Position numbers and translations under genes: made by a program. A stretch of DNA of 64,000 bases from an uncultured Poribacteria bacterium (GTDB lineage Bacteria > Poribacteria > WGA-4E > PCPOR2b). The DNA is taken from NCBI GenBank assembly GCA_958296125.1, contig OY282444.1, forward strand, positions 1,289,176 through 1,353,175, given 5' to 3'. The notes beneath the pieces were generated by a model that was not told where the DNA came from, ran no database searches, and was given only the letters and a program-made list of their open reading frames with translations. This document shows positions 5,769 through 18,559 of this stretch, piece by piece (positions within the stretch are counted from its first letter, which is position 1; every line of letters begins with the position of its first letter).

Positions 5769-8700
5769 TTACCGCATTGACATTTTCTCAGGATTGCTTG
5801 TGCGCCGCAGGACAACACCCCACTGACCGACTATCCATAGCGTATCGTCGTTTGGAGCGCGGACGATAGTATATAGGTTGTTGGAGATATCTGTATATTC
5901 TCGTTCCCATGTTGTGCCGCCATCCGTTGAATGGAGGATTGTGCCGGCTGCACCAACGACGTAGATTTTCTGCTCCGATAGCGCGAGGATGCCGTAGAGT
6001 GCTTCGGTGACACCGCTCGACAAGGCTTCCCACTTAAATCCGCCTCCAGTTGTGCGGAGGATGATGCCGTAATCGCCGGCTGCCCACCCCTTCCGTTTCG
6101 TGATGAACGACACCCCATACAGATTATAACCGGTGTCGGTTTCGTGATGCTTCCAATATCCGCCCCCGTTGATTGTTCGTTGGATAATGCCGCTGTGCCC
6201 AACCGCCCAACCGAGCGGCGCAAATTTCATCTCGACCCTTTCGAGGTCTTTCCCTGTGGAGGTACGTTGGGGGGTCCAGATGGGGCCCCCGTCTTGGTTA
6301 TGGATAATCTGTCCATCCCTACCAACAGCCCACCCTTCGGAGAAATCGCCAAACGCGACATCGCTTATGGCAAACGGCAACGGCGGGTCTTCCTCAAAGA
6401 GACCTGGGAGCGTCGGGGTTTGTCCCACTGACCATTTCACACCGTTGGTTGTGTACAGCACGGTGCCATCGCGCCGCATTGACCAGCCCCATCGCGTTGT
6501 TCCTTCAGATTCGGCGTTTAACCCCGATACATCGGCAAAGTGAATGCCGACAAGCGTCTGTTCAGTTCCACTTTTCACTGGGGTCCAAGTCTGCCCGCCG
6601 TCTTGGGTCTCCAGCAGTAAGCCATTATCTCCGGTAATCCAACCGTGCGTGTCGTCTAGGAAGAGGATATCCCGGAAGTCATCAAGTTGCTCGCCGAGTT
6701 GACGTTCCCACGTTTGTCCGCCATTTTCAGTGTAATAGATATGCCCTGCGTCGCCAACTGCCCATGCGTGTTGGTCGCCGACGAAGTGCACATTGGTGAT
6801 TGGCAGCCCGGATTGACGACGACCCCGATGTTGGCGGGCTATCGGTCTTTCTCGGTTTTCCCTCTCTGTATCTGTCTGTGTGGTAGCTGTGTCCTCAGCA
6901 TCACTCTCAATCTCTCCTTCAGGCGTGAAACGCCCAACGCGCGATCGCCGCTCGCTCAAATCTCTCTGAAAGGTGTCAGCAAAGCCTTCGTCCAGTGGAT
7001 TGGTGACCGGTGGCTGTGGCTCTTGCGCGTGATCCGCTGCTGCCTCCATGTCTACCTGTTTACTCTGAGCAATTAGTTCTGCCATCGTCTCAAGCCCGAC
7101 GTAGTTCGGCAGCCAACTCTCGCCTTGGTCGCTTGTTACGAGAATCGCGCCGTTACGGTCAATGCCCCAAGCCCGCTGATGGCTATGGAACTTGATTCGA
7201 CGAATCCCTTCCACCACGGTTTCCGGGAAGATTTGTCGCCACGTTACGCCGCCATCAGATGTGATGAGGGACTTGCCCTCCCTGCCCACAATCCAGCCGG
7301 ATTTTGCATCGGCGAAATGCACTGCGGCAGCAGGCTGGTGGGTCTTGCTCTGAATCTCCCAGTAGTCCCCGCTGTTGACGGTATGCAGAATCAGTCCCCC
7401 TTCGACCCGTTGGGGGGTAATTGCCCACCCTTCGGTGCTATTGACGAAATGGAGTGCTGTGATGGGTTGGTTTGTCGTCCCGGTTTTCTGACGTTTCCAC
7501 GTTACGCCGCCATCGGTCGTATGGAGCGTTTGTCCCTGATCCGCACCGAGCCACCCTTCTTGACTATTGATGAACTGCATGGCACTAATCCTGTGGAAGT
7601 TTCGCACTACCTTTTTGATGACCTGCCACGTTTTTCCACCATTTTCTGTCCGAAGCAGCACACCGCGTCCGACAATCCATCCGTGATCTTCGTTGATGAA
7701 AGTGATGTGGCGCAAATCCTCCTTCACACCACTGTGTTGGGGCACCCACGTTTTGCCGCCATCCGTCGTGTGTGCAATCACGCCGCCGGATCCGACTGCC
7801 CACCCGCGTAAAGTAGCTGGCTCATCCCCTGTACGATGAAAATAGGTATCGGCGAAATCCGTCTGCCAAGTTGCCTGACGGACGATTTCCCAATGATAGG
7901 TGACCTCCTCGACGATCGGTGGTTCTTCAATAGCTTCGGCAGCTTCCGTTGGCTCTGCCATAGGGGGGAGTTCGGCTGGCAATTCTTCCGCGTCAACAGA
8001 GTAACGCATCGCAATTCCCCCTTTGCCAACAGCGACCATCCCTTCCGGTGAAAGGGCAAATCCGTATAGGTCGTTCTCCGTGTCGCTCTCCTGCAGTTCC
8101 CATTTCGCCCCACCGTTGGTAGTAGTTAGGATAACCCCGTTGTCCCCCACGACGAGGCCATGCTTTGCATCGGCGAAGTAGACCTTATTCAAATTTGCCT
8201 CCACACCGCTCCGTTGGAATTTCCACGTTTTTCCCCCATCTTTGGTGTGCAAAATTTCTCCAAACTGCCCAGTTACCCAGCCGGTCTTGTTGTCGATAAA
8301 GTAGATCGCGTATAGTTCATTGTAGGTAGGTGTCTTTTGTTGTGTCCATGTCAGTCCGCCGTTGGCTGTGCCGATAATAATGCCGGGCCAACCGACCGTC
8401 CAGCCTTCCTTATCGTTGAGGAAGAACACGCCTTTGAGCATGTGAAATTCGCCCGGCGTTTGCTGCACCCATGATTCGCCGCCATCAGCCGTATGTAAGA
8501 CCGTCCCAAGATCGCCAACAACCCAACCTTTTTTCGGACTGACGAAGTAGGTGCCCCGGAGCGAGTACCACCACCCGCTTTTTTGCGTTTCCCAGCTCTG
8601 TCCGCCGTCAGCGGTATGGACGATCATGCCCCGATCACCGACTGCCCACCCCTCTAGGTCTGAGACAAAATAGAGGCTTCGGATGTTGTCCCAGATATCC

Positions 8701-9824
8701 GTCTGAACCTCGGTCCATGTTTGCCCGCCATCTTGGCTCATGGCGATGGTGCCCCCTTTGCCGACAGCAATTGCCCGATTCGCATCAGCAAACTGTACCT
8801 CCTCAAGGTCGTTGGCGGTCGTGCCGCTGACTATCGCCCATGTTTCTCCGCCATCCTCTGAGTGCATGATTGTGCCATACCAGCCGATCGCCCATGCCTC
8901 GTTTGGGGTGGTAAACTGAATTCCTGTCAGATTATTTTCGGTGCCGCTCTCCAGCAATCGCCAATTGTCCCCACCGTCCTCTGTGAACGTGATGAAACCG
9001 ACATCAGCGACCGCCACGCCGCGTTTGTTGTCCACAAAGTGGATACTGTTGACGGTGTCTCGAACATGTCCGTTGATTAGTGGGATACGACTATCCTGAC
9101 GCGTCCATTCGGTACCTCCGTTTATGGTGTGAAAAATTGAGCCATCAGTCCCGACAAGCCAGCCCTCATTTTTGCTGATGAAGAAGACCCGCTTGTTGTC
9201 ATTGATCATCCGGTCGCGTTCACCCTCGTAGCGGTTAGTTTGTTGCCGCCACGTTTTGCCACCGTCCTCTGTGAAGAGAATCCGATCATTTGCACCGACA
9301 GTCCAGCCACGGTACTTGCTGACAAACCAGATGCCGCTAAGTGGAAAGTCGCTGATGTATTCATACCGTTCCCATGTTTTCCCGCCGTTCTGTGTGTATA
9401 GGACATCGGCATCCTCTCCGACGATCCACCCCTCATCGGAATTTGCGAAGCAGACATCCCTGAGCATTGCTAAGGTGCCGCTTTCCTGAAGATGCCAGTG
9501 CCGTCCGCCATCATCGGTGGTAGCGATTAAGCCCTTATCGCCCACTGCCCAACCGTAACGGGGATTGGTGAAATAGACCGCCTTGAAATCACCTTCCGTT
9601 GCAATTTCTTGGCGTTTCCACGTCTTTCCACCATCGCTCGTGTGGACGATTAATCCCTTTTCGCCGACGATCCAGCCGCGTTCGGCATCTGCGAAGTGCA
9701 AATCCGTGAAATTAGTTTCCCAATCCGCTTTGCGGGTCACGTCTTGTTTACAACCGACGAGTAAAATTATGAATGTAAAAGCAAGCGTCGTCGCTCGGAA
9801 TATATGTTGGTATGCCTGTTTCAT
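5769..9824 (-). CDS. Large YCF48/BNR-repeat beta-propeller lipoprotein (1351 aa)
   Basis: Lipobox LLVGC; many GWxVGxxG.I.HTxDGGxTW (Asp-box) repeats; acidic/Pro linkers. Confidence 0.9.
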   Translation of the reverse strand: MKQAYQHIFRATTLAFTFIILLVGCKQDVTRKADWETNFTDLHFADAERGWIVGEKGLIVHTSDGGKTWKRQEIATEGDFKAVYFTNPRYGWAVGDKGLIATTDDGGRHWHLQESGTLAMLRDVCFANSDEGWIVGEDADVLYTQNGGKTWERYEYISDFPLSGIWFVSKYRGWTVGANDRILFTEDGGKTWRQQTNRYEGERDRMINDNKRVFFISKNEGWLVGTDGSIFHTINGGTEWTRQDSRIPLINGHVRDTVNSIHFVDNKRGVAVADVGFITFTEDGGDNWRLLESGTENNLTGIQFTTPNEAWAIGWYGTIMHSEDGGETWAIVSGTTANDLEEVQFADANRAIAVGKGGTIAMSQDGGQTWTEVQTDIWDNIRSLYFVSDLEGWAVGDRGMIVHTADGGQSWETQKSGWWYSLRGTYFVSPKKGWVVGDLGTVLHTADGGESWVQQTPGEFHMLKGVFFLNDKEGWTVGWPGIIIGTANGGLTWTQQKTPTYNELYAIYFIDNKTGWVTGQFGEILHTKDGGKTWKFQRSGVEANLNKVYFADAKHGLVVGDNGVILTTTNGGAKWELQESDTENDLYGFALSPEGMVAVGKGGIAMRYSVDAEELPAELPPMAEPTEAAEAIEEPPIVEEVTYHWEIVRQATWQTDFADTYFHRTGDEPATLRGWAVGSGGVIAHTTDGGKTWVPQHSGVKEDLRHITFINEDHGWIVGRGVLLRTENGGKTWQVIKKVVRNFHRISAMQFINSQEGWLGADQGQTLHTTDGGVTWKRQKTGTTNQPITALHFVNSTEGWAITPQRVEGGLILHTVNSGDYWEIQSKTHQPAAAVHFADAKSGWIVGREGKSLITSDGGVTWRQIFPETVVEGIRRIKFHSHQRAWGIDRNGAILVTSDQGESWLPNYVGLETMAELIAQSKQVDMEAAADHAQEPQPPVTNPLDEGFADTFQRDLSERRSRVGRFTPEGEIESDAEDTATTQTDTERENRERPIARQHRGRRQSGLPITNVHFVGDQHAWAVGDAGHIYYTENGGQTWERQLGEQLDDFRDILFLDDTHGWITGDNGLLLETQDGGQTWTPVKSGTEQTLVGIHFADVSGLNAESEGTTRWGWSMRRDGTVLYTTNGVKWSVGQTPTLPGLFEEDPPLPFAISDVAFGDFSEGWAVGRDGQIIHNQDGGPIWTPQRTSTGKDLERVEMKFAPLGWAVGHSGIIQRTINGGGYWKHHETDTGYNLYGVSFITKRKGWAAGDYGIILRTTGGGFKWEALSSGVTEALYGILALSEQKIYVVGAAGTILHSTDGGTTWEREYTDISNNLYTIVRAPNDDTLWIVGQWGVVLRRTSNPEKMSMR

Positions 9825-10673: not shown

Positions 10674-11417
10674 ATGAACACTCGCAGGTTTATTACCACG
10701 GCCATTCTGGCAATAGTGGTGTTAATCGGGATAAGTTCATTCGTTGTTTACGATATGAGGGCCCCTGTCAAAGAAGTAAGGGTCTATGAAGTCCCCGAAT
10801 CAAGGCAGGTGCAGCGTAAAGCGAATGTAATAGAGATAGCTGACAACCCAACCCTACCTCAAGATATTTCTACCCTTACGGCAGAAGAAAAGGCTGCTAA
10901 AATTGAACAGCTACGTGCTGAAATTGAACAGCTAGATGCTGAAACTGAACAACTACGTGCTGAAACTGAACAGCTACGTCAGGAAACAGCTGAAGCAAAT
11001 CGAAGGAGTGCTGCTGCCTTACAACGCATTGCGGAAGCAAAGCGTGTAGCTGCGAGCATAAAAGATGGAACCCATCCCCTGATTGTCGAAACTCGCGAAC
11101 TAGTGTATTGGATTGAAAATGATTTTACCCCCCGATTCGCTGCAGCGGCTGACGAGGCAGGGCATTTGGTAGTTCCCCACATGACGCGAGAGACTTTTGT
11201 TGAGATGTATCCTGACCCAGCGGACCAAGCATATTACATCCAAAAACTCCAAGAAATCGTAGGTCTCCATGAAGAACTTGCCACACGCATTGCCAATGCA
11301 TCGCCAGATGTCCGCGAGGCGAGTATTGAGGGATTTCGGCGGGTGTGGACTGTCGCCTTTGGAAAAGATGTAACGGACGATTTCCTCGCAGAGATTTCTC
11401 AACGGATAACCAACTAA
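10674..11417 (+). CDS. Hypothetical membrane-anchored protein with heptad coiled coil
   Basis: Strong RBS aaggagg; N-terminal hydrophobic helix; KIEQLRA-EIEQLDA-ETEQLRA-ETEQLRQ heptads. Confidence 0.75.
   Translation: MNTRRFITTAILAIVVLIGISSFVVYDMRAPVKEVRVYEVPESRQVQRKANVIEIADNPTLPQDISTLTAEEKAAKIEQLRAEIEQLDAETEQLRAETEQLRQETAEANRRSAAALQRIAEAKRVAASIKDGTHPLIVETRELVYWIENDFTPRFAAAADEAGHLVVPHMTRETFVEMYPDPADQAYYIQKLQEIVGLHEELATRIANASPDVREASIEGFRRVWTVAFGKDVTDDFLAEISQRITN
10897..10981 (+). repeat. 21-bp coding tandem repeat, about 4 units
   Basis: Units of the form aaattgaacagctacgtgctg. Confidence 0.85.
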
Positions 11418-11783
11418 GGAGAACCCCATGAGAAAATTGATTGTAATCCCCTTGAGATTTCAAAAACGCCTGAACGACCCACACCAGCGTCTACCTCAAT
11501 TCCCGCCTTCCCACTGAATGCCCTCGCTACCCATTCGATTTATCTTAAAGTTTCGGAGAAGTAGGTAGAAATAAAGTAAGAAATCGACCGCCCGTCCTAC
11601 CCCGATCGCGTGCCCAACCCCCTTCTATCAAATTTCAATCCATTATCGCGGACGCAATCATCGAAAACAGCGTCTCCGTCCGTAGCATAAGTGATTCATT
11701 GTGCTCATTGATATGCTGCTGCTCCCGTTAGATTTAACAATCCGATGGGAGCGTGGGGGATTTGTTGTTATCAGCCTTTTTGC

Positions 11784-11812
11784 TTGCATTTCAATAACGG
11801 GTATGCTAAGAT
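11784..11812 (+). promoter_or_regulatory. Sigma70-type promoter for the MetE-like gene
   Basis: TTGCAT-17 nt-TAAGAT with extended -10 TG, about 120 nt upstream of ATG 11933. Confidence 0.55.
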
Positions 11813-11932
11813 GAACACACTATTCCCGGTGGGAAATTGATACGGGTACAGGGACACACATTGCACTGTATGTGTATGACAAACGGATAAACATCGGGTT
11901 TGCAATGGAAACCGTATTTGCGAGGGGTGCCC

Positions 11933-13042
11933 ATGATCACGGCACATACCGATGTCATTGGCAGCTTGCTCCGTCCGCCTGAACTTCTCAAAGCAAGAAG
12001 CGAGGTCACCGCGGGCAGAATAAAGCAAGCGGCGTTCAAAGCCATCGAAGATCGAGCGGTTGACAAAGTTGTCGCGCTTCAGGAAGCGGTGGGCTTGGAA
12101 GTCGTTACCGATGGCGAAATGCGTCGGTTATCCTTCCAGAGCCAGATGACAGAAGCGATTGCCGGTTTCGGCGAATATGACCTCAATGCTTTCCTTTGGG
12201 GAGATTGGCGTGGCGACGGGGGTGCGGGGAACTTGAGCCTAGAACGTCCCAAAAGCTTGGGCGTTGTCGGCAAACTCACCCGCAAGCGTCACCTCTCAGC
12301 GGAGGAGTTCACCTACCTACGAGCGCGGACGACTCGCATACCGAAGATCACGTTGCCCAGTCCCAGCCTGTGGACGAACTTCTGGTCGCCAGAATACTCC
12401 CTGCCTGCCTATCCCACGCTTGACAGTTTCCTTGCGGATGCCGTTGACATCCTACGGGACGAGGTTGCCGAGTTGGTTCGACTCGGTGGAACCTACATTC
12501 AACTTGATGCCCCCCACTACCCGCTGCTGCTCGATCCCAAGACTCGAACCTTCTATGAAGAGCAAGGTTGGTGCCTTGATCAGTGGTTGGACCGAGGCAT
12601 TGAGATGGATAACGCTGTGATTGGCGATTTCCCGGAGGTGACCTTTGGCTTTCACCTCTGACGCGGCAATCAGGGCAGCCGGTGGTTGGCCGAAGGGGGC
12701 TATGACCTGATTGCCAAACCGATTTTTCAAGGCATCCGTGCACAGCGTCTGCTGCTCGAATATGACGATGAACGCTCCGGTCTATTTGAACCGTTGAAGG
12801 AGATTCCCGATGACAAGATTGCCGTTTTAGGCTTGGTTACGACGAAAACACAACGGCGAGAGACACCGGAAGCACTCACCACGCGTATCAAGGAAGCCAG
12901 CCAATTTGTGCCGCTAGAACGACTTGCGTTGAGTCCACAGTGCGGCTTTTCAACTTCGGTCATCGGCAATCGCATCACAGCAGAGGACCAGAGGCATAAG
13001 CTGTCGGTGATTGTTGAGACCGCTAGAAGGGTATGGGGCTGA
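11933..13042 (+). CDS. Selenocysteine-containing cobalamin-independent methionine synthase II-like (short MetE catalytic-domain family) protein, 369 aa, Sec243
   Basis: Track ORFs 11900-12661 and 12686-13042 are in the same frame, joined by TGA 12659-12661 read as FHL-U-RGN (canonical HLCRGN); other Zn ligands intact (H241, E276 in LLEYD, C337 in SPQCGF); RBS gagggg before ATG 11933. Confidence 0.88.
12674..12691 (+). promoter_or_regulatory. Putative bacterial SECIS element of the MetE-like gene
   Basis: Hairpin GGC-AGCC/GGTT-(G)-GCC with apical loop GGT beginning 19 nt after the UGA; G at loop position 1. Confidence 0.65.
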
Positions 13043-13055
13043 ACTGGGAGAAATT

Positions 13056-13235
13056 TTGAAGGAGGATGGATACGGCGCAAATCCCCAAAAACCATCAAAT
13101 GCGATCGGTGATTCCTATATTTGTACTGTAGACAATGTGAGCCCCGGTGCTGTTATCGCTCGATCTACAGCGGCAACCCGCGCAGATGCTGAATCTGATG
13201 CGTTAGCACAAGCGAAAGCTGCTATGGGGACTTGA
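13056..13235 (+). CDS. Possible 59-aa small protein
   Basis: TTG start after GGGAG; Ala-rich helical C-terminus; no family recognised. Confidence 0.3.
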   Translation: MKEDGYGANPQKPSNAIGDSYICTVDNVSPGAVIARSTAATRADAESDALAQAKAAMGT

Positions 13236-13343: not shown

Positions 13344-14405
13344 ATGAACTTAAATAAGCTGTCACGAAAACATACCCTCACAAGTTTGGCAAAAACGTGT
13401 GGGTGAGCGGCGAAAGTCAGTCCAGTTGGACTGGGAGAACTCTTGGCAAAATTGCCGAAGAAAAGCGACCCGAATCTGCTTGTTGGATTTGAAACTAGCG
13501 ACGATGCCGGCATCTACCGCCTCAACGACGAGATGGCATTGGTTACGACCGCCGACTTTATCACGCCACCCGTGGATGACCCGTATCTGTTTGGTCAGAT
13601 TGCTGCAGCCAATTCAATCAGCGATATTTATGCGATGGGCGGCAGACCTGTGACCTGTCTGAATTTGGTGGGGTTTCCGGCGGATAAATTGGCCCCAGAA
13701 ATCCTGCATGGCATTGTCGAAGGTGCGTTAAGTAAAATCACTGAATCGGGTGCAGTCTTGGCGGGAGGGCATACGACCGACGATGAGGAGCCCAAGTTTG
13801 GGTTATCGGTCACTGGGATTGTGCATCCGGAAAAATATTGGCGAAATGTCGGTGCAGAACCGGGGGATGTGCTAATCTTGACCAAACCGATCGGCAGCGG
13901 CGTGATTTTTAACGCCAATCTCAAAAATTGGGTATCAGACCAAGCGTTAAACGAATGCCTACAGACTATCACAACGCTCAACAAGCAGGCGGCGGCGGTG
14001 ATGGCTGACTTCGACATCCATGCGGTAACGGACATCACCGGATTCGGATTGGGGGGGCATGCCTTGGAAATGGCGGAAGGGTCGACTGTGACTTTGGAAA
14101 TTCATACCGACGACGTGCCGATTCTGCGCGAGGCACTGGAAATGTACCAAAAAGGGATGCGGACGGGTGTCAACGCTGCCAATCGAGCCTTGATTGAAGC
14201 TTTTGTACACTTTGAAAAATCACTCCCCGAATGGCATGAGGAAATTTTTGTTGATCCGCAGACCAGCGGTGGATTGCTAGTGTCTGTGCCGGATGCTCAA
14301 AGCAAATCGCTGTTGACGGCTCTACACAATGGCGGTGTGACAAAAGCACAGGTTATCGGGAATGTGAAATCCTTTGTTGAACCGAACCATCTTGTCTTTG
14401 TATGA
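13344..14405 (+). CDS. selD: Selenide, water dikinase (selenophosphate synthetase), Sec-containing, 353 aa
   Basis: ATG 13344 reads MNLNKLSRKHTLTSLAKTCG-U-AAKVSP, in frame with track ORF 13443; TGA 13404-13406 at the catalytic C/U-x-x-K site; DDAGIY, TADFITP, AAANSISDIYAMGG, DITGFGL, DPQTSGGLL motifs. Confidence 0.96.
13418..13433 (+). promoter_or_regulatory. Bacterial SECIS element of selD
   Basis: Perfect stem CAGTCC/GGACTG, loop AGTT beginning 17 nt after the UGA, G at loop position 2. Confidence 0.8.
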
Positions 14406-14408
14406 ATT

Positions 14409-15359
14409 ATGAAAATATGCTTAATTACCCCTGCCCCAACATACTCTCGGAAGGGTAACCGTGTGACTGCCCTTCGGTGGGCTCGCATCTTACGAGACCT
14501 GGGTCACCGCGTCGTTATCGCGGAGGAATATCGGGGGGAGCGATGCGATTTGCTGGTCGCGCTCCACGCGCGTCGTAGTCACGCTTCTATTGCGCGTTTC
14601 CATCACGAACACCCAGAGCTGCCTCTCATCCTCGCCTTAACTGGAACAGATCTCTACGGCGATATCCATACAGATGCATCAGCCCAAGAATCTTTGGAGA
14701 TAGCGGATCGTTTCATTCTGTTACAGCCCGCAGGCATTAAAGAACTCTCAGAACACCTGCGTGACAAAGCGTGGGTAATCTACCAATCAATAACAGCACC
14801 ACCGGGGAGGTTTGTCCCAAAAAAGCGCGTTTTCGAGCTGTGTGTGCTGGGGCATCTGCGGCCTGTAAAGGACCCATTTCGGACTGCGATGGCAGCTCGA
14901 TGGCTGCCTCCATCATCCCAGATTCAGGTGGTGCATGTTGGGGGTGCACTCACCGACGACATGAAAGCAGCGGCAGAGGCTGAAGCAGCCACCAATCCAC
15001 GTTACCGTTGGTTGGGTGAGCTCCCACGCTGGCGGGCACTCCGTATCCTTGCACGAAGTCGGCTGCTCGTGCTGACCTCTCAAATGGAGGGAGGAGCGAA
15101 TGCAGTTTCCGAAGCGCTCGCGTGTTCCGTTCCTGTCATTTCGTCGCGGATATCTGGCTCGATCGGTCTCTTGGGAGAGGATTATCCGGGCTACTTTCCG
15201 GTGGGAGATACAAAAGCGTTGACGGATCTGCTCATGCGTGTTGAAATGGATACCGCATTTTATGACATACTCAAAGCGTGGTGTGAAAGCCTAAAGTCGA
15301 TTGTCGATCCTGACCGTGAGCGTCGGAGTTGGAAAGGTCTGCTACAGGATTTGCGGTAA
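14409..15359 (+). CDS. senB: Selenosugar synthase (TIGR04348-type glycosyltransferase)
   Basis: ITPAP..SRKGNRVTALRWA, ALHARRS, LTGTDLY, HLRPVKDP, MEGGAN motifs; starts 3 nt after the selD stop. Confidence 0.88.
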   Translation: MKICLITPAPTYSRKGNRVTALRWARILRDLGHRVVIAEEYRGERCDLLVALHARRSHASIARFHHEHPELPLILALTGTDLYGDIHTDASAQESLEIADRFILLQPAGIKELSEHLRDKAWVIYQSITAPPGRFVPKKRVFELCVLGHLRPVKDPFRTAMAARWLPPSSQIQVVHVGGALTDDMKAAAEAEAATNPRYRWLGELPRWRALRILARSRLLVLTSQMEGGANAVSEALACSVPVISSRISGSIGLLGEDYPGYFPVGDTKALTDLLMRVEMDTAFYDILKAWCESLKSIVDPDRERRSWKGLLQDLR

Positions 15360-16446: not shown

Positions 16447-16749
16447 ATGATTAAATACACCCCATTGACGCTTGATGAAATCCCTGAAGATGAGCAGGAA
16501 GTGCTTCTCACAAAGGTTGCGATGGAGATTGTGAAGCGGCGGCTGACCGTGCCCGCGATTGTATTCCTTGAGACCTGTAAACCGCTCAACTTTATCGGGA
16601 GTCAAATGCTTATTGCGCTTAACCCTTTTGTCACTGCAATTTTTAACACCGCTGAATATCAGAAATTTGCTTTGATAATCGAAAAGGATGCAAATGTTGA
16701 ATTGCTGACTCAACTTATTGAGAAATTAGATGGAGAGGAGAAAAAGTAG
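16447..16749 (+). CDS. Conserved hypothetical protein upstream of the GlmL-like gene
   Basis: 100-aa ORF with plausible composition, stop 2 nt before the next start. Confidence 0.75.
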   Translation: MIKYTPLTLDEIPEDEQEVLLTKVAMEIVKRRLTVPAIVFLETCKPLNFIGSQMLIALNPFVTAIFNTAEYQKFALIIEKDANVELLTQLIEKLDGEEKK

Positions 16750-16750
16750 T

Positions 16751-18559
16751 ATGTCGGACCAGGCACAGGAGATGCGCTCGATTCTTGCAACAGATTGTGG
16801 CAGCACCACCACGAAAGCTATCTTGATAGAGAAACGGGGGGACGAATACCATCTTGTGGTTCGTGGGGAGGCACCGACAACGGTTGAAGCACCGGTGGAG
16901 GATGTCACCGCTGGGGTAATCAACGCGATAACGGAGGTCGAGGAACTCGCTGGACGTAGGCTCTTGAAGGACGGGCAGATCCTCAAGCCGCAACAGGGGA
17001 ATGAAGGCACAGATCTGTATATCTCGACGAGTAGTGCAGGCGGTGGTTTACAGATGATGGTTGCGGGTGTCGTGCGGAACCTCACCGCCGAGAGCGCGGA
17101 ACGTGCCGCACTGGGCGCGGGCGCGATTGTCATGGATGTAATCGCTTCTAACGACAAGCGGCTCCCTCACGAGAAGATTGAGCGCATCCGACATCTCCGC
17201 CCGGATATGGTGCTTCTTTCCGGCGGCATTGACGGCGGGACAACCTCCCACGTTGCGGAGTTAGCAGAGATCATTGGGGCAGCAAATCCCAAACCCCGTT
17301 TGGGGGTGAGTTATAAGTTGCCGGTGGTCTATGCAGGAAACAAGGAGGCGCGCTCGGTTGTCGGCGAGCGACTTGGCGATAAAATGGCGTTAGAGGTGGT
17401 CGATAACCTACGTCCGGTGTTAGAGCGCGAAAATCTGATGCCGACCCGTCTGAAAATCCAAGATCAGTTTCTAGAGCATGTCATGGCGCACGCCCCCGGC
17501 TACAGAACATTAATCTCTTGGACCGATGCGCCGATTATGCCAACGCCCGGTGCTGTCGGCGCAATTATGCAAACGATTGCCGCCCAGCAGAACATCGAGG
17601 TAGTTGGCGTGGACATCGGGGGCGCAACAACAGATGTGTTCTCGGTCTTCAGAAATCAAGAGGGTGAGGCGATTTTTAACCGCACGGTGAGTGCCAATCT
17701 GGGGATGAGCTACAGTATCTCCAACGTCCTTGCGGAGGCGGGGATGGAGAACGTTTTGCGTTGGGTACCCTTTGATATTGATGTCAGCAACCTTGGGAAT
17801 CGGATCAAGAACAAAATGATAAGACCGACAACGATTCCGCAGGCATTGGAGGAACTAATTATCGAGGGTGCCATTGCGCGTGAAGCCTTGCGATTGGCGT
17901 TTGATCAGCACAAGCAGCTTGCGGTCGAACTGCGGGGGGTGCAGCAACAGCGCACCATCTCCGAGGCGTTCTCTCAATCTGAGACCGGGGCGACACTTGT
18001 GGATATGCTTTCGCTGGACCTGATTGTCGGAAGTGGCGGCGTACTTTCCCACGCACCCCGCCGGAATCAGGCGATGTTGATGATGATTGACGCATTTCAG
18101 CCGGAGGGAGTTACCCACCTCGCTGTCGATAGTATTTTTATGATGCCTCAACTCGGTGTGCTCGCTCAGGTCAACGAAGCGGCGGCGACACAGGTCTTTG
18201 AGCGTGATTGTCTCATCCACTTAGGCACCTGCATTGCACCGATTGGGGTTGCCACCCCCGGCGATTCGGGTGTCACAATCACCGGCGATTTGACGGAAAC
18301 CGTGCCGTTTGGCGAATTGCGTCTCTATCCGTTGGGTGTCGGGGAGAAGGCACGGGTGACAATCCAACCTGAGCGTCGTCTCGACATGGGGGCGGGACGT
18401 GGACAGCTAGTGGAAGCGGAGGTTGAAGGGGGCGTAGTCGGCTTGGTAGTAGATACGCGCGGTCGCCCTCTCGAAGTTTCTAACGCGTCCACCGAGCGTG
18501 TCGCAATGCTCAAAAAGTGGTTCCAAGCGTTGGAGGTATATCCCGAAAGTTTCATGTAA
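16751..18559 (+). CDS. Glutamate mutase L (GlmL/MutL)-like ASKHA ATPase
   Basis: ILATDCGSTTTK and VDIGGATTDVFS phosphate loops; RTVSANLGMSYS. Confidence 0.85.
   Translation: MSDQAQEMRSILATDCGSTTTKAILIEKRGDEYHLVVRGEAPTTVEAPVEDVTAGVINAITEVEELAGRRLLKDGQILKPQQGNEGTDLYISTSSAGGGLQMMVAGVVRNLTAESAERAALGAGAIVMDVIASNDKRLPHEKIERIRHLRPDMVLLSGGIDGGTTSHVAELAEIIGAANPKPRLGVSYKLPVVYAGNKEARSVVGERLGDKMALEVVDNLRPVLERENLMPTRLKIQDQFLEHVMAHAPGYRTLISWTDAPIMPTPGAVGAIMQTIAAQQNIEVVGVDIGGATTDVFSVFRNQEGEAIFNRTVSANLGMSYSISNVLAEAGMENVLRWVPFDIDVSNLGNRIKNKMIRPTTIPQALEELIIEGAIAREALRLAFDQHKQLAVELRGVQQQRTISEAFSQSETGATLVDMLSLDLIVGSGGVLSHAPRRNQAMLMMIDAFQPEGVTHLAVDSIFMMPQLGVLAQVNEAAATQVFERDCLIHLGTCIAPIGVATPGDSGVTITGDLTETVPFGELRLYPLGVGEKARVTIQPERRLDMGAGRGQLVEAEVEGGVVGLVVDTRGRPLEVSNASTERVAMLKKWFQALEVYPESFM

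Follow-up and report, generated by a model that had tools for sequence, protein, structure and literature searches.

A probable selenocysteine-containing form of a short MetE-like enzyme, encoded beside selD and senB in an uncultured Poribacteria bacterium

Analysis of a 64,000-nucleotide stretch of contig OY282444.1, from an uncultured Poribacteria bacterium (the whole stretch is called the window here), indicates that the gene at positions 11933-13042 on the forward strand is very probably an intact selenoprotein gene. We propose that its in-frame UGA at codon 243 is read as selenocysteine (Sec) by means of a hairpin lying downstream within the coding sequence. The product would be a predicted zinc-selenolate enzyme related to MetE, a cobalamin-independent methionine synthase, with the methylation of homocysteine as its most likely reaction. 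Both the decoding machinery and the enzyme fold are already known; what is new is that the family is unlisted and has its proposed Sec where a zinc-binding residue is expected. The gene and its key codons lie as follows.

11922-11927, + strand: Shine-Dalgarno-like GAGGGG, read off the sequence, 5 nucleotides (nt) before the ATG at 11933
11933-13042, + strand: MetE-like gene, 369 codons in one frame with a single internal stop, TGA; the read-through product has 369 residues with Sec243
12653-12655, + strand: codon of His241, predicted first zinc ligand of the H-x-C motif; opposite Escherichia coli MetE H641 in hhalign; invariant in 147 Sec and 120 Cys proteins
12659-12661, + strand: UGA codon 243, proposed Sec where E. 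coli MetE has the zinc ligand Cys643; 211 homologous loci share this TGA
12758-12760, + strand: codon GAA of Glu276, in LLLEYDDE, probable third zinc ligand; invariant
12941-12943, + strand: codon TGC of Cys337, in SPQCGF, predicted fourth zinc ligand; opposite E. coli MetE C726 by hmmsearch and hhalign; invariant

The internal stop stands in the context ...EVTFGFHL-TGA-RGNQGSRWLAEGGYD... (translation of 11933-13042, + strand), which gives the motif VTFGFHL-stop-RGNQGSRWL in the read-through translation. Homologues begin with MITAH at the ATG at 11933. A mechanical listing of open reading frames (ORFs) breaks the gene in two, at 11900-12661 and 12686-13042, and the full-length Poribacteria Sec form is absent among database proteins, indicating that gene callers split it. 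A first-pass annotation, made from the letters of the window alone, had placed the single interruption on the Cys of the HxC motif, had seen the frame continue with E276 and C337 intact, and had taken the gene to be hidden as a split gene that standard gene callers would mark as a pseudogene. The placement of the stop, the continuing frame and the splitting all held. Scans for promoters and terminators around the gene gave nothing above shuffled sequence.

A protein search with the read-through product returned at least 8000 homologues, of which the best 120 were examined further. These are full-length and 72-79% identical to the query and, where named, are called 'cobalamin-independent methionine synthase II family protein'. 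The motif FHLCRGNQxSRWL was found in 119 of the best 120, with Cys at the TGA position in all 119. We then scanned DNA from species-representative genomes and metagenome contigs for the pattern H-L-TGA-R-G-N-Q-x-S-R-W. The pattern occurs in 96 species genomes from at least 12 phyla and in at least 120 metagenome contigs. Judged by their record titles, these genomes comprise 20 Poribacteria, 19 Dehalococcoidia, 5 other Chloroflexota, 19 Acidobacteriota, 7 Methylomirabilota, 3 Binatia and 3 Deltaproteobacteria/Desulfobacterales, 2 each of Latescibacterota, Gemmatimonadales, Tectomicrobia and Nitrospinota, 1 each of Planctomycetota, Cytophagia and Gammaproteobacteria, and 9 that are unclassified. 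True homologues with an open downstream frame make up 211 of the 216 loci listed; one pattern match (L123) is an unrelated sequence. The stretch beyond the TGA is exactly 126 codons long, as in the window, in 143 loci, and about 126 in nearly all.

The sequence downstream of the TGA evolves as coding sequence. Mean pairwise divergence there is 0.27, 0.19 and 0.58 at codon positions 1, 2 and 3, respectively, which argues that the stretch is translated and under purifying selection. The residues S11, E62, D192, H241, E276 and C337 show no variation across the 147 unique Sec proteins. The genes' own terminators are TAA in 74 cases, TGA in 73 and TAG in 58, and the 73 genes ending at TGA rule out a reassigned TGA in these genomes.

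Read-level data agree with the assembled codon. Three independent run assemblies from the source sample are identical over 12300-13000, at a low word depth of 3-6, and RNA contigs of close relatives (four metatranscriptome runs, 100-400x word depth) cross 12625-12697 with no listed difference at 12659-12661. Metatranscriptome contigs of relatives, about 85-97% identical (runs X10-X13), also cover the whole gene at 11900-13100 with a word depth of about 100-580, from which the orthologue seems to be highly expressed in that community. The three identical run assemblies, together with the recurrence of the same TGA in 96 genomes, rule out an assembly error. The open frame, the invariant residues and the codon-position divergence downstream rule out a pseudogene or split gene. 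Collectively, recurrence, downstream selection and the read assemblies exclude an assembly error, a private mutation and a pseudogene. Two doubts contained in the first-pass annotation, that reads might show TGC or TGT and that the TGA might be unique to this genome, are thereby answered.

A related alternative takes the TGA as a real stop, leaving either a pseudogene or a 242-residue N-terminal piece that reassembles with a separately initiated C-terminal piece (starting, for example, at TTG 12686). Gene callers do yield exactly those two ORFs, and archaeal split MetE proteins exist (PMC7857596). However, the break always falls on the zinc-ligand Cys codon and is TGA in 211 loci across many phyla, by the scan for the TGA pattern, and a split there would lose one zinc ligand. 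The residues RGNQGSRW, which lie between the TGA and any restart, are in frame and conserved like the remainder. Synonymous sites are, moreover, constrained for a SECIS-like hairpin (described below), and purifying selection continues downstream in the same frame. We therefore regard a genuine stop as highly improbable.

Bacterial UGA codons that specify Sec are followed by a selenocysteine insertion sequence (SECIS) element, and a SECIS-like structure is present here and in the neighbouring selD gene, itself of the Sec type.

12673-12691, + strand: SECIS-like hairpin inside the coding sequence; lower stem 12673-74/12690-91, 1x1 mismatch, upper stem 12676-80/12684-88, apical loop GGU at 12681-83
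12665-12674 pairing with 12706-12715, + strand: outer stem of 10 base pairs enclosing the hairpin, present in the minimum-free-energy fold of the window
13344-14405, + strand: selD/senC-type selenophosphate synthetase (TIGR00476, E=8e-113, 376.7 bits versus 125), itself Sec-type

Counting the U of the UGA as position 1, the structure common to 178 unique sequences has a lower stem of 15-16/32-33, a 1x1 mismatch at 17/31 and an upper stem of 18-22/26-30, in which C18 A19 G20 C21 C22 pairs with G26 G27 C28 U29 G30 beneath an apical loop G23-(G/U)24-U25. The distance from UGA to loop is 19 nt and the stem starts 11-14 nt after the UGA. The element thus corresponds to the bacterial SECIS pattern of a stem-loop with G/U in its apical loop about 16-37 nt from the UGA. 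In selD, the in-frame TGA at 13404-06 stands in the motif TCG-U-AAK, 745 nt downstream of the MetE-like TGA, and is followed by a hairpin at 13417-13434 with the loop AGUU. The loops occupy nt 22-25 in E. coli fdhF (GGUC), nt 21-24 in the window's selD (AGUU) and nt 23-25 in the MetE-like hairpin, such that the loop G-U lies about 22-25 nt from the UGA in all three. The first-pass annotation had described a G-loop hairpin beginning 19 nt after the TGA, with a geometry shared by a Sec-type selD some 700 bp away. Both the hairpin and the selD comparison stand, with the refinement that 19 nt is the distance from UGA to loop and that the stem itself begins at 11-14 nt. A crude scan of the window for other genes with an in-frame TGA and a hairpin returned the MetE-like gene and selD only.

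The hairpin is encoded by the codons of Q-G-S-R-W-L, so its conservation alone proves nothing. We accordingly looked to synonymous positions, where selection on the RNA can be told from selection on the peptide. Codon choice within the hairpin departs from that elsewhere in the same Sec-form genes. For S249, 98.7% of Sec forms use AGC, compared with 30% at other Ser codons; the third base of residue 248 is C in about 96%, against 46% elsewhere; and L252 is CTG or TTG in 95%, against 47%. At R250 the codons are CGG (78%), CGT (17%) and AGG (5%), with CGC and CGA together in 0 of 153 sequences, although these two make up 49% of the other Arg codons in the same genes (56% at R244). For comparison we drew on 10 distinct Cys-form DNAs from contig look-ups. 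Six of these 10 have CGC or CGA at R250 (Fisher p=9e-9), Ser249 is AGY in all 10, and the remaining hairpin is largely present. The features specific to Sec forms appear, from these comparisons, to be a loop nucleotide 24 restricted to G or U and a tighter pairing.

Covariation points the same way. The pair 18-30 joins two third-codon positions and is C-G in 161 sequences, G-C in 4, A-U in 2, U-A in 1 and U-G in 2. The G-C, A-U and U-A cases amount to 7 double-sided changes, and departures from C18 are associated with departures from G30 (Fisher p=4e-7). Across a 150-sequence alignment 93.1% of cells are paired, and none of 500 shuffles and no slid register reaches the pairing or the covariation score. 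The hairpin is thus conserved, with covariation, well beyond the source genome; the first-pass annotation had counted a lack of conservation against its reading. The outer stem retains a mean of 8.7 of its 10 pairs in 31 members of the window's clade versus 5.7 of 10 elsewhere; either an extension peculiar to the clade or mere sharing of codons could account for it.

Protein comparisons place the product among MetE-like proteins. The read-through protein matches PF01717 (Meth_synt_2) over residues 6-343 with 54.4 bits against a gathering cutoff of 21. Its closest solved structure, 1YPX, aligns over the full length with E=1.6e-49 by sequence and 1.5e-61 by profile. An hhalign comparison of the family profile with residues 421-753 of E. 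coli MetE (probability 98.9%) sets FGFHLC opposite IHTHMC, equating H241 with H641 and U243 with C643, and sets SPQCGF opposite NPDCGL, equating C337 with C726. The same alignment equates S11, E62 and D192 with S433, E484 and D599, which bind homocysteine in E. coli MetE; ligand and substrate-binding residues of that enzyme are as given in PMC7857596. E276 aligns Glu-to-Glu with the methionine synthase MesD (3RPD) by HMMER, whose local alignments to MetE and MesD are unreliable near H-x-C, the 3RPD alignment being shifted by 4 residues. The description of the gene product in the first-pass annotation as a short MetE-like enzyme, devoid of the folate-binding half and with Sec for the Cys of HxC, is in keeping with these correspondences.

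An AlphaFold2 model of the 78%-identical Cys orthologue P0002 (predicted local distance difference test (pLDDT) 86.8, predicted template modelling score 0.89) is a (beta-alpha)8 barrel of the MetE type. In this model strands 237-242, 272-276 and 331-335 carry H241/C243, E276 and C337, respectively, at their C-terminal ends. Its best Foldseek matches in the PDB are Thermotoga maritima MetE (template modelling (TM) score 0.75), 1YPX (0.72/0.83) and MesD 3RPD (0.73/0.79). The pLDDT falls below 50 only at residues 247-251 and 339-344, the loops after H-x-C and after Cys337, which in the model flank the presumed metal and substrate site. Taken together, His241, Sec243, Glu276 and Cys337 are predicted to form a Zn-selenolate centre.

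These features suggest the following mechanism. SelB and Sec-tRNA(Sec) would be recruited by the hairpin at 12673-12691, whose GGU loop lies 23-25 nt from the U of the UGA, and UGA243 would be decoded as Sec. The 369-residue product would fold as a (beta-alpha)8 barrel homologous to the catalytic C-terminal half of MetE, with Sec243 in place of the first Cys of the His-x-Cys...Glu...Cys motif and zinc held by His241, Sec243, Glu276 and Cys337. Homocysteine, or a close amino-acid thiol or selenol, would be bound through S11, E62 and D192, activated on the metal and then methylated; the invariance of these three residues is what makes homocysteine or a close thiol/selenol the most likely substrate.

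Several observations weigh against this interpretation. The conserved peptide QGSRWL forces most of the hairpin, which is nearly present in Cys forms, so that the Sec-specific signal appears confined to a few positions judged against 10 Cys-form DNAs. The hairpin matched no Rfam family at the gathering threshold or at E<=10, a null result that is uninformative since the accepted selD element is likewise unmatched in Rfam. The pattern scan was fixed on TGA at codon 243. The hhalign alignment places E665 of MetE opposite residues in the R269 region rather than E276; with the gap placement missing E665, E276 is a probable third ligand by motif and strand end only. The structural model is of the Cys orthologue P0002 and not of the read-through window protein. 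With respect to function, the nearest NCBIfam models score below their cutoffs (PRK06520, 236.8 versus 313; PRK06233, 218.7 versus 576), which sets the MetE-like protein apart as a separate subfamily, and the contexts of Cys forms are heterogeneous (10 contexts). Finally, neither the 64-kb window nor any fetched locus showed selA, selB or selC: searched by tblastn, E. coli SelA and SelB had no match in the window or in any of the loci, and ARAGORN found no tRNA gene in the window.

This last point bears on a second alternative, in which the UGA is read through without selenium, through local recoding or a near-cognate tRNA for Cys, Trp or Arg, to give an ordinary Cys-type or variant enzyme in low yield. 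UGA is the leakiest stop codon, and selD is the only Sec machinery gene seen in the window or the fetched loci. Against such read-through stand a hairpin that resembles known SelB-binding elements in its position and its G/U loop, the Sec-specific synonymous constraint and the adjoining Sec-type selD. A single change of TGA to TGY would, moreover, restore full yield, yet TGA persists through large clades. Lineages carrying the TGA have also been independently reported to possess Sec enzymes, and Sec-type hydrogenases are reported in Poribacteria (PMC13582414). We give selenium-free read-through hardly any credence and retain decoding of UGA243 as Sec.

Sec and Cys forms are closely interleaved. 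The nearest relatives of the window protein are Poribacteria Sec forms at 87-89% identity, and the nearest Cys form is 78.6% identical. A neighbour-joining tree of 147 Sec and 120 Cys proteins contains 27 Sec-only clades, and parsimony requires at least 21 Sec/Cys switches, an approximate count given that the tree is without support values and that the choice of Cys proteins leans toward the window. Cys forms (L217-L239, codons 247-252) encode QGSRWL as CAG GGC AGC CGN TGG CTG, with most of the hairpin already there. Since the peptide pre-encodes most of the SECIS hairpin, repeated interconversion of Cys and Sec forms would be possible by one or two point changes, and such easy interconversion fits the switches in the sampled tree. 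No Cys paralogues were found inside Sec loci. A scan of viral contigs for the Cys-form pattern gave 0 matches, and tblastn against plasmids found one close orthologue only (Rubrobacter, 63%), leaving no Cys-form codon statistics from plasmids.

The genomic surroundings link the gene to selenium metabolism. In the window, selD starts about 300 nt downstream of the MetE-like gene and is followed 3 nt later by a gene of selenoneine biosynthesis.

14409-15359, + strand: senB, selenosugar synthase of selenoneine biosynthesis (TIGR04348, 398.1 bits versus 300)

The order X-selD-senB, where X is the MetE-like gene, recurs in 15 Poribacteria loci. Neither senA nor egtD was found within the 64-kb window. 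Elsewhere, clustering of the neighbours of Sec loci showed that the commonest are EgtD directly upstream (TIGR03438, 368.5 versus 290.9) and SenA directly downstream (NF041186, 448.5 versus 420), both on the same strand as the MetE-like gene and separated from it by about 40-70 nt. One or more of egtD, senA, senB and selD lie beside the MetE-like gene in 46 of 217 loci by tblastn and in at least 36 of the 96 genome loci, the latter figure being a lower bound as the locus blocks span only 8 kb. Linkage to sen or egt genes occurs in at least five gene orders, among Poribacteria, Methylomirabilota, Planctomycetota, Latescibacterota, Gemmatimonadales and Nitrospinota. The orders are these.

X-selD-senB: most Poribacteria
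egtD-X-senA: Methylomirabilota, Tectomicrobia and Thermoanaerobaculia
senA-senB-X-egtD: Planctomycetota (L034)
X..senA-senB: Latescibacterota (L015)
egtD..X-senA..selD: Poribacteria (L042)

Methylomirabilota loci with such clusters include L006, L035, L103 and L116. No sen or egt genes were seen in the 10 sampled Cys-form contexts. The pairing with senB, the linkage to sen clusters and the encoding of the hairpin by a conserved peptide are additions beyond the first-pass annotation.

In the published pathway, selenoneine is made by SenA, SenB and SenC with hercynine from EgtD, and no MetE-like gene is mentioned (bioRxiv 10.1101/2022.04.13.486033). Measured against described sen clusters (senA-senB-senC with optional egtD), the window shares selD(senC)-senB directly after the gene, and other loci have egtD and senA flanking it, with scores over the NCBIfam cutoffs. 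The MetE-like gene itself is not a described sen gene, and the pathway was reconstituted without one (bioRxiv 10.1101/2022.04.13.486033). Read most simply, the sen/egt context would reflect regeneration of methionine and S-adenosylmethionine (SAM) for the three SAM-dependent methylations that EgtD performs per hercynine; the SAM cycle, metE included, has been treated as a target in ergothioneine engineering (PMC13276445). A bolder extension, which we put forward only tentatively, is that the Sec MetE-like enzyme is an unrecognised component of sen clusters, contributing a Zn-selenolate or Sec-nucleophile step that ties selenium metabolism to methyl/thiol transfer, and that it would be the first natural enzyme with Sec on a catalytic zinc. 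Candidate steps could be donor-specific methionine regeneration from imported betaine or the processing of a selenium intermediate.

A different role for Sec243 has to be weighed against the same clusters. The residue might be redox-active or nucleophilic in a selenoneine-specific reaction, making the enzyme a fourth sen-cluster component in which Sec is not mainly a zinc ligand. Examples would be reduction of SenA's hercynyl selenenic acid or selenoxide with Cys337 as the resolving residue, a methyl/selenium relay, or selenium supply to SelD/SenC. The linkage described above, near at least 36 of 96 genome loci in at least five gene orders and six lineages and absent from the 10 Cys-form contexts, speaks for such a role. 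Sec/Cys pairs, moreover, mostly mark redox-active catalytic residues (PMC13188914), and reduction of the selenenic acid is left to unspecified reductants in the published pathway (bioRxiv 10.1101/2022.04.13.486033). However, the invariance of all four zinc-ligand and three homocysteine positions suits a zinc-thiolate methyltransferase better than a reductase, and the in vitro reconstitution of selenoneine did without an enzyme of this kind (bioRxiv 10.1101/2022.04.13.486033). Cys orthologues of 72-79% identity are, furthermore, abundant outside the sen context, from which the core reaction is probably not selenium-specific. We judge a redox or selenoneine-specific role unlikely and favour a zinc-dependent methyltransferase, in which Sec243 would be a metal ligand.

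Other neighbours were noted in passing. MttB-family (quaternary-amine methyltransferase) genes lie near two Cys-form orthologues, in L219 (9791-11230) and L222; L222 also has a pterin-binding methyltransferase gene nearby (the regions noted in L222 are 7363-8856 and 11276-12154), and such MttB and pterin neighbours may hint at a methyl-donor system. A methylaspartate ammonia-lyase-like gene lies directly upstream of the Cys-form orthologue in L222. An ATP-binding cassette (ABC) pair, consisting of an ATPase of about 243 residues and a fused substrate-binding/permease protein of about 500-527 residues, occurs in L103, L116 and L096 (about +1.4 to +3.6 kb) and in L034 and L042, and resembles OpuB/EgtUV-type transporters of quaternary amines (ergothioneine) by sequence appearance only. 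In the window itself, 16730-18559 (+ strand), a few kb downstream, encodes a GlmL-family protein (methylaspartate mutase accessory, or related to ornithine degradation) that scores below NCBIfam cutoffs. The ORF at 5769-9824 (- strand) encodes 1351 residues with many 'DGG.TW'-type repeats, BNR/Ycf48-like in appearance, and a lipoprotein-like N-terminus.

The family appears to be absent from existing inventories. No PF01717, MetE or methionine-synthase entry is found among the 119 prokaryotic selenoprotein families and subfamilies in Table 1 of a May 2026 review, and none of the listed families has a Sec-Zn catalytic site. A Sec MetE family is unmentioned in the main texts of the Global Ocean Sampling (GOS) selenoproteome, deep-Sep and BSepDB papers and in the deep-Sep supplements. 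Within the searchable literature, beyond which reports are possible, no phrase search turned up a MetE or methionine synthase that contains Sec. The suggestion in the first-pass annotation that this family lies outside the classic bacterial selenoprotein families thus agrees with the inventory of 119.

If correct, our reading would enlarge the prokaryotic selenoproteome by a widespread family, found in no fewer than 96 species and 12 phyla, among them sponge-symbiont Poribacteria, Dehalococcoidia, Acidobacteriota and NC10. As annotated at present the gene is split or dropped, with the result that methionine and methyl metabolism are under-called in these genomes. With Sec standing in for one ligand of a non-redox catalytic zinc, the family would provide a natural Sec/Cys pair for probing a selenolate at a zinc-thiolate alkylation site, where effects on nucleophilicity, resistance to oxidation or other properties may be asked about. 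The recurrent embedding among egtD, senA, senB and selD suggests a link between selenoprotein synthesis, methionine/SAM supply and selenoneine production.

Comparison with characterised relatives places the protein between several known systems. Canonical MetE shares the homologous catalytic C-terminal barrel, the zinc ligands H641, C643 and C726, and counterparts of S433, E484 and D599. The window protein differs in having no N-terminal folate-binding domain (369 versus 753 residues), in an identity of only about 18-27%, in Sec for C643, and in the spacing of the Glu ligand, which follows H-x-C by 33 residues rather than the 22 of MetE. It scores far below the cutoffs of the canonical MetE models (TIGR01371, 38.2 bits versus 929.95; PRK05222, 39.1 versus 541), and MetE's methyl-folate donor cannot be assumed for it. 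The core methionine synthases MesA-MesD are folate-independent, their methyl donor being other than methyl-folate (PMC7857596). They resemble the window protein in comprising a single MetE-like barrel with a HCEC-type zinc site and homocysteine-binding residues. The structure of MesD (3RPD) has a similar fold, but its sequence is distant (E=5e-7; PRK09121, 45.8 bits versus 392). DUF1852, the MesX partner, did not turn up in any of the 10 Cys-form contexts, nor among the genes often found beside Sec loci, and Sec forms of MesA-MesD are not mentioned in PMC7857596.

The closest solved structure, 1YPX, is of a Listeria protein of 375 residues, named 'putative vitamin-B12 independent methionine synthase family protein', that matches the window protein in length, single-domain organization and fold. 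It shares the motifs H-x-C-R-G-N (HICRGN), LEYD-ERSG (LEYDNERSG) and SPQCGF. The short proteins of this 1YPX/YxjG-YxjH-like type (PRK06233, PRK06520) differ in that their Firmicutes and Enterobacteria members are only about 33-35% identical and have Cys, not Sec; their own reaction is also uncharacterised. The use of Sec has its nearest parallels in formate dehydrogenase H (Mo/W) and the [NiFeSe] hydrogenases (Ni), in which Sec likewise replaces a metal-ligand Cys of the Cys-type homologue. The parallel extends to an in-frame SECIS hairpin of the fdhF type and to the interleaving of Sec and Cys forms in the tree (PMC13188914, PMC13582414). In contrast to these enzymes, the metal in the MetE-like protein would be zinc, which is not redox-active, and its reaction would alkylate a thiolate instead of moving hydride or electrons.

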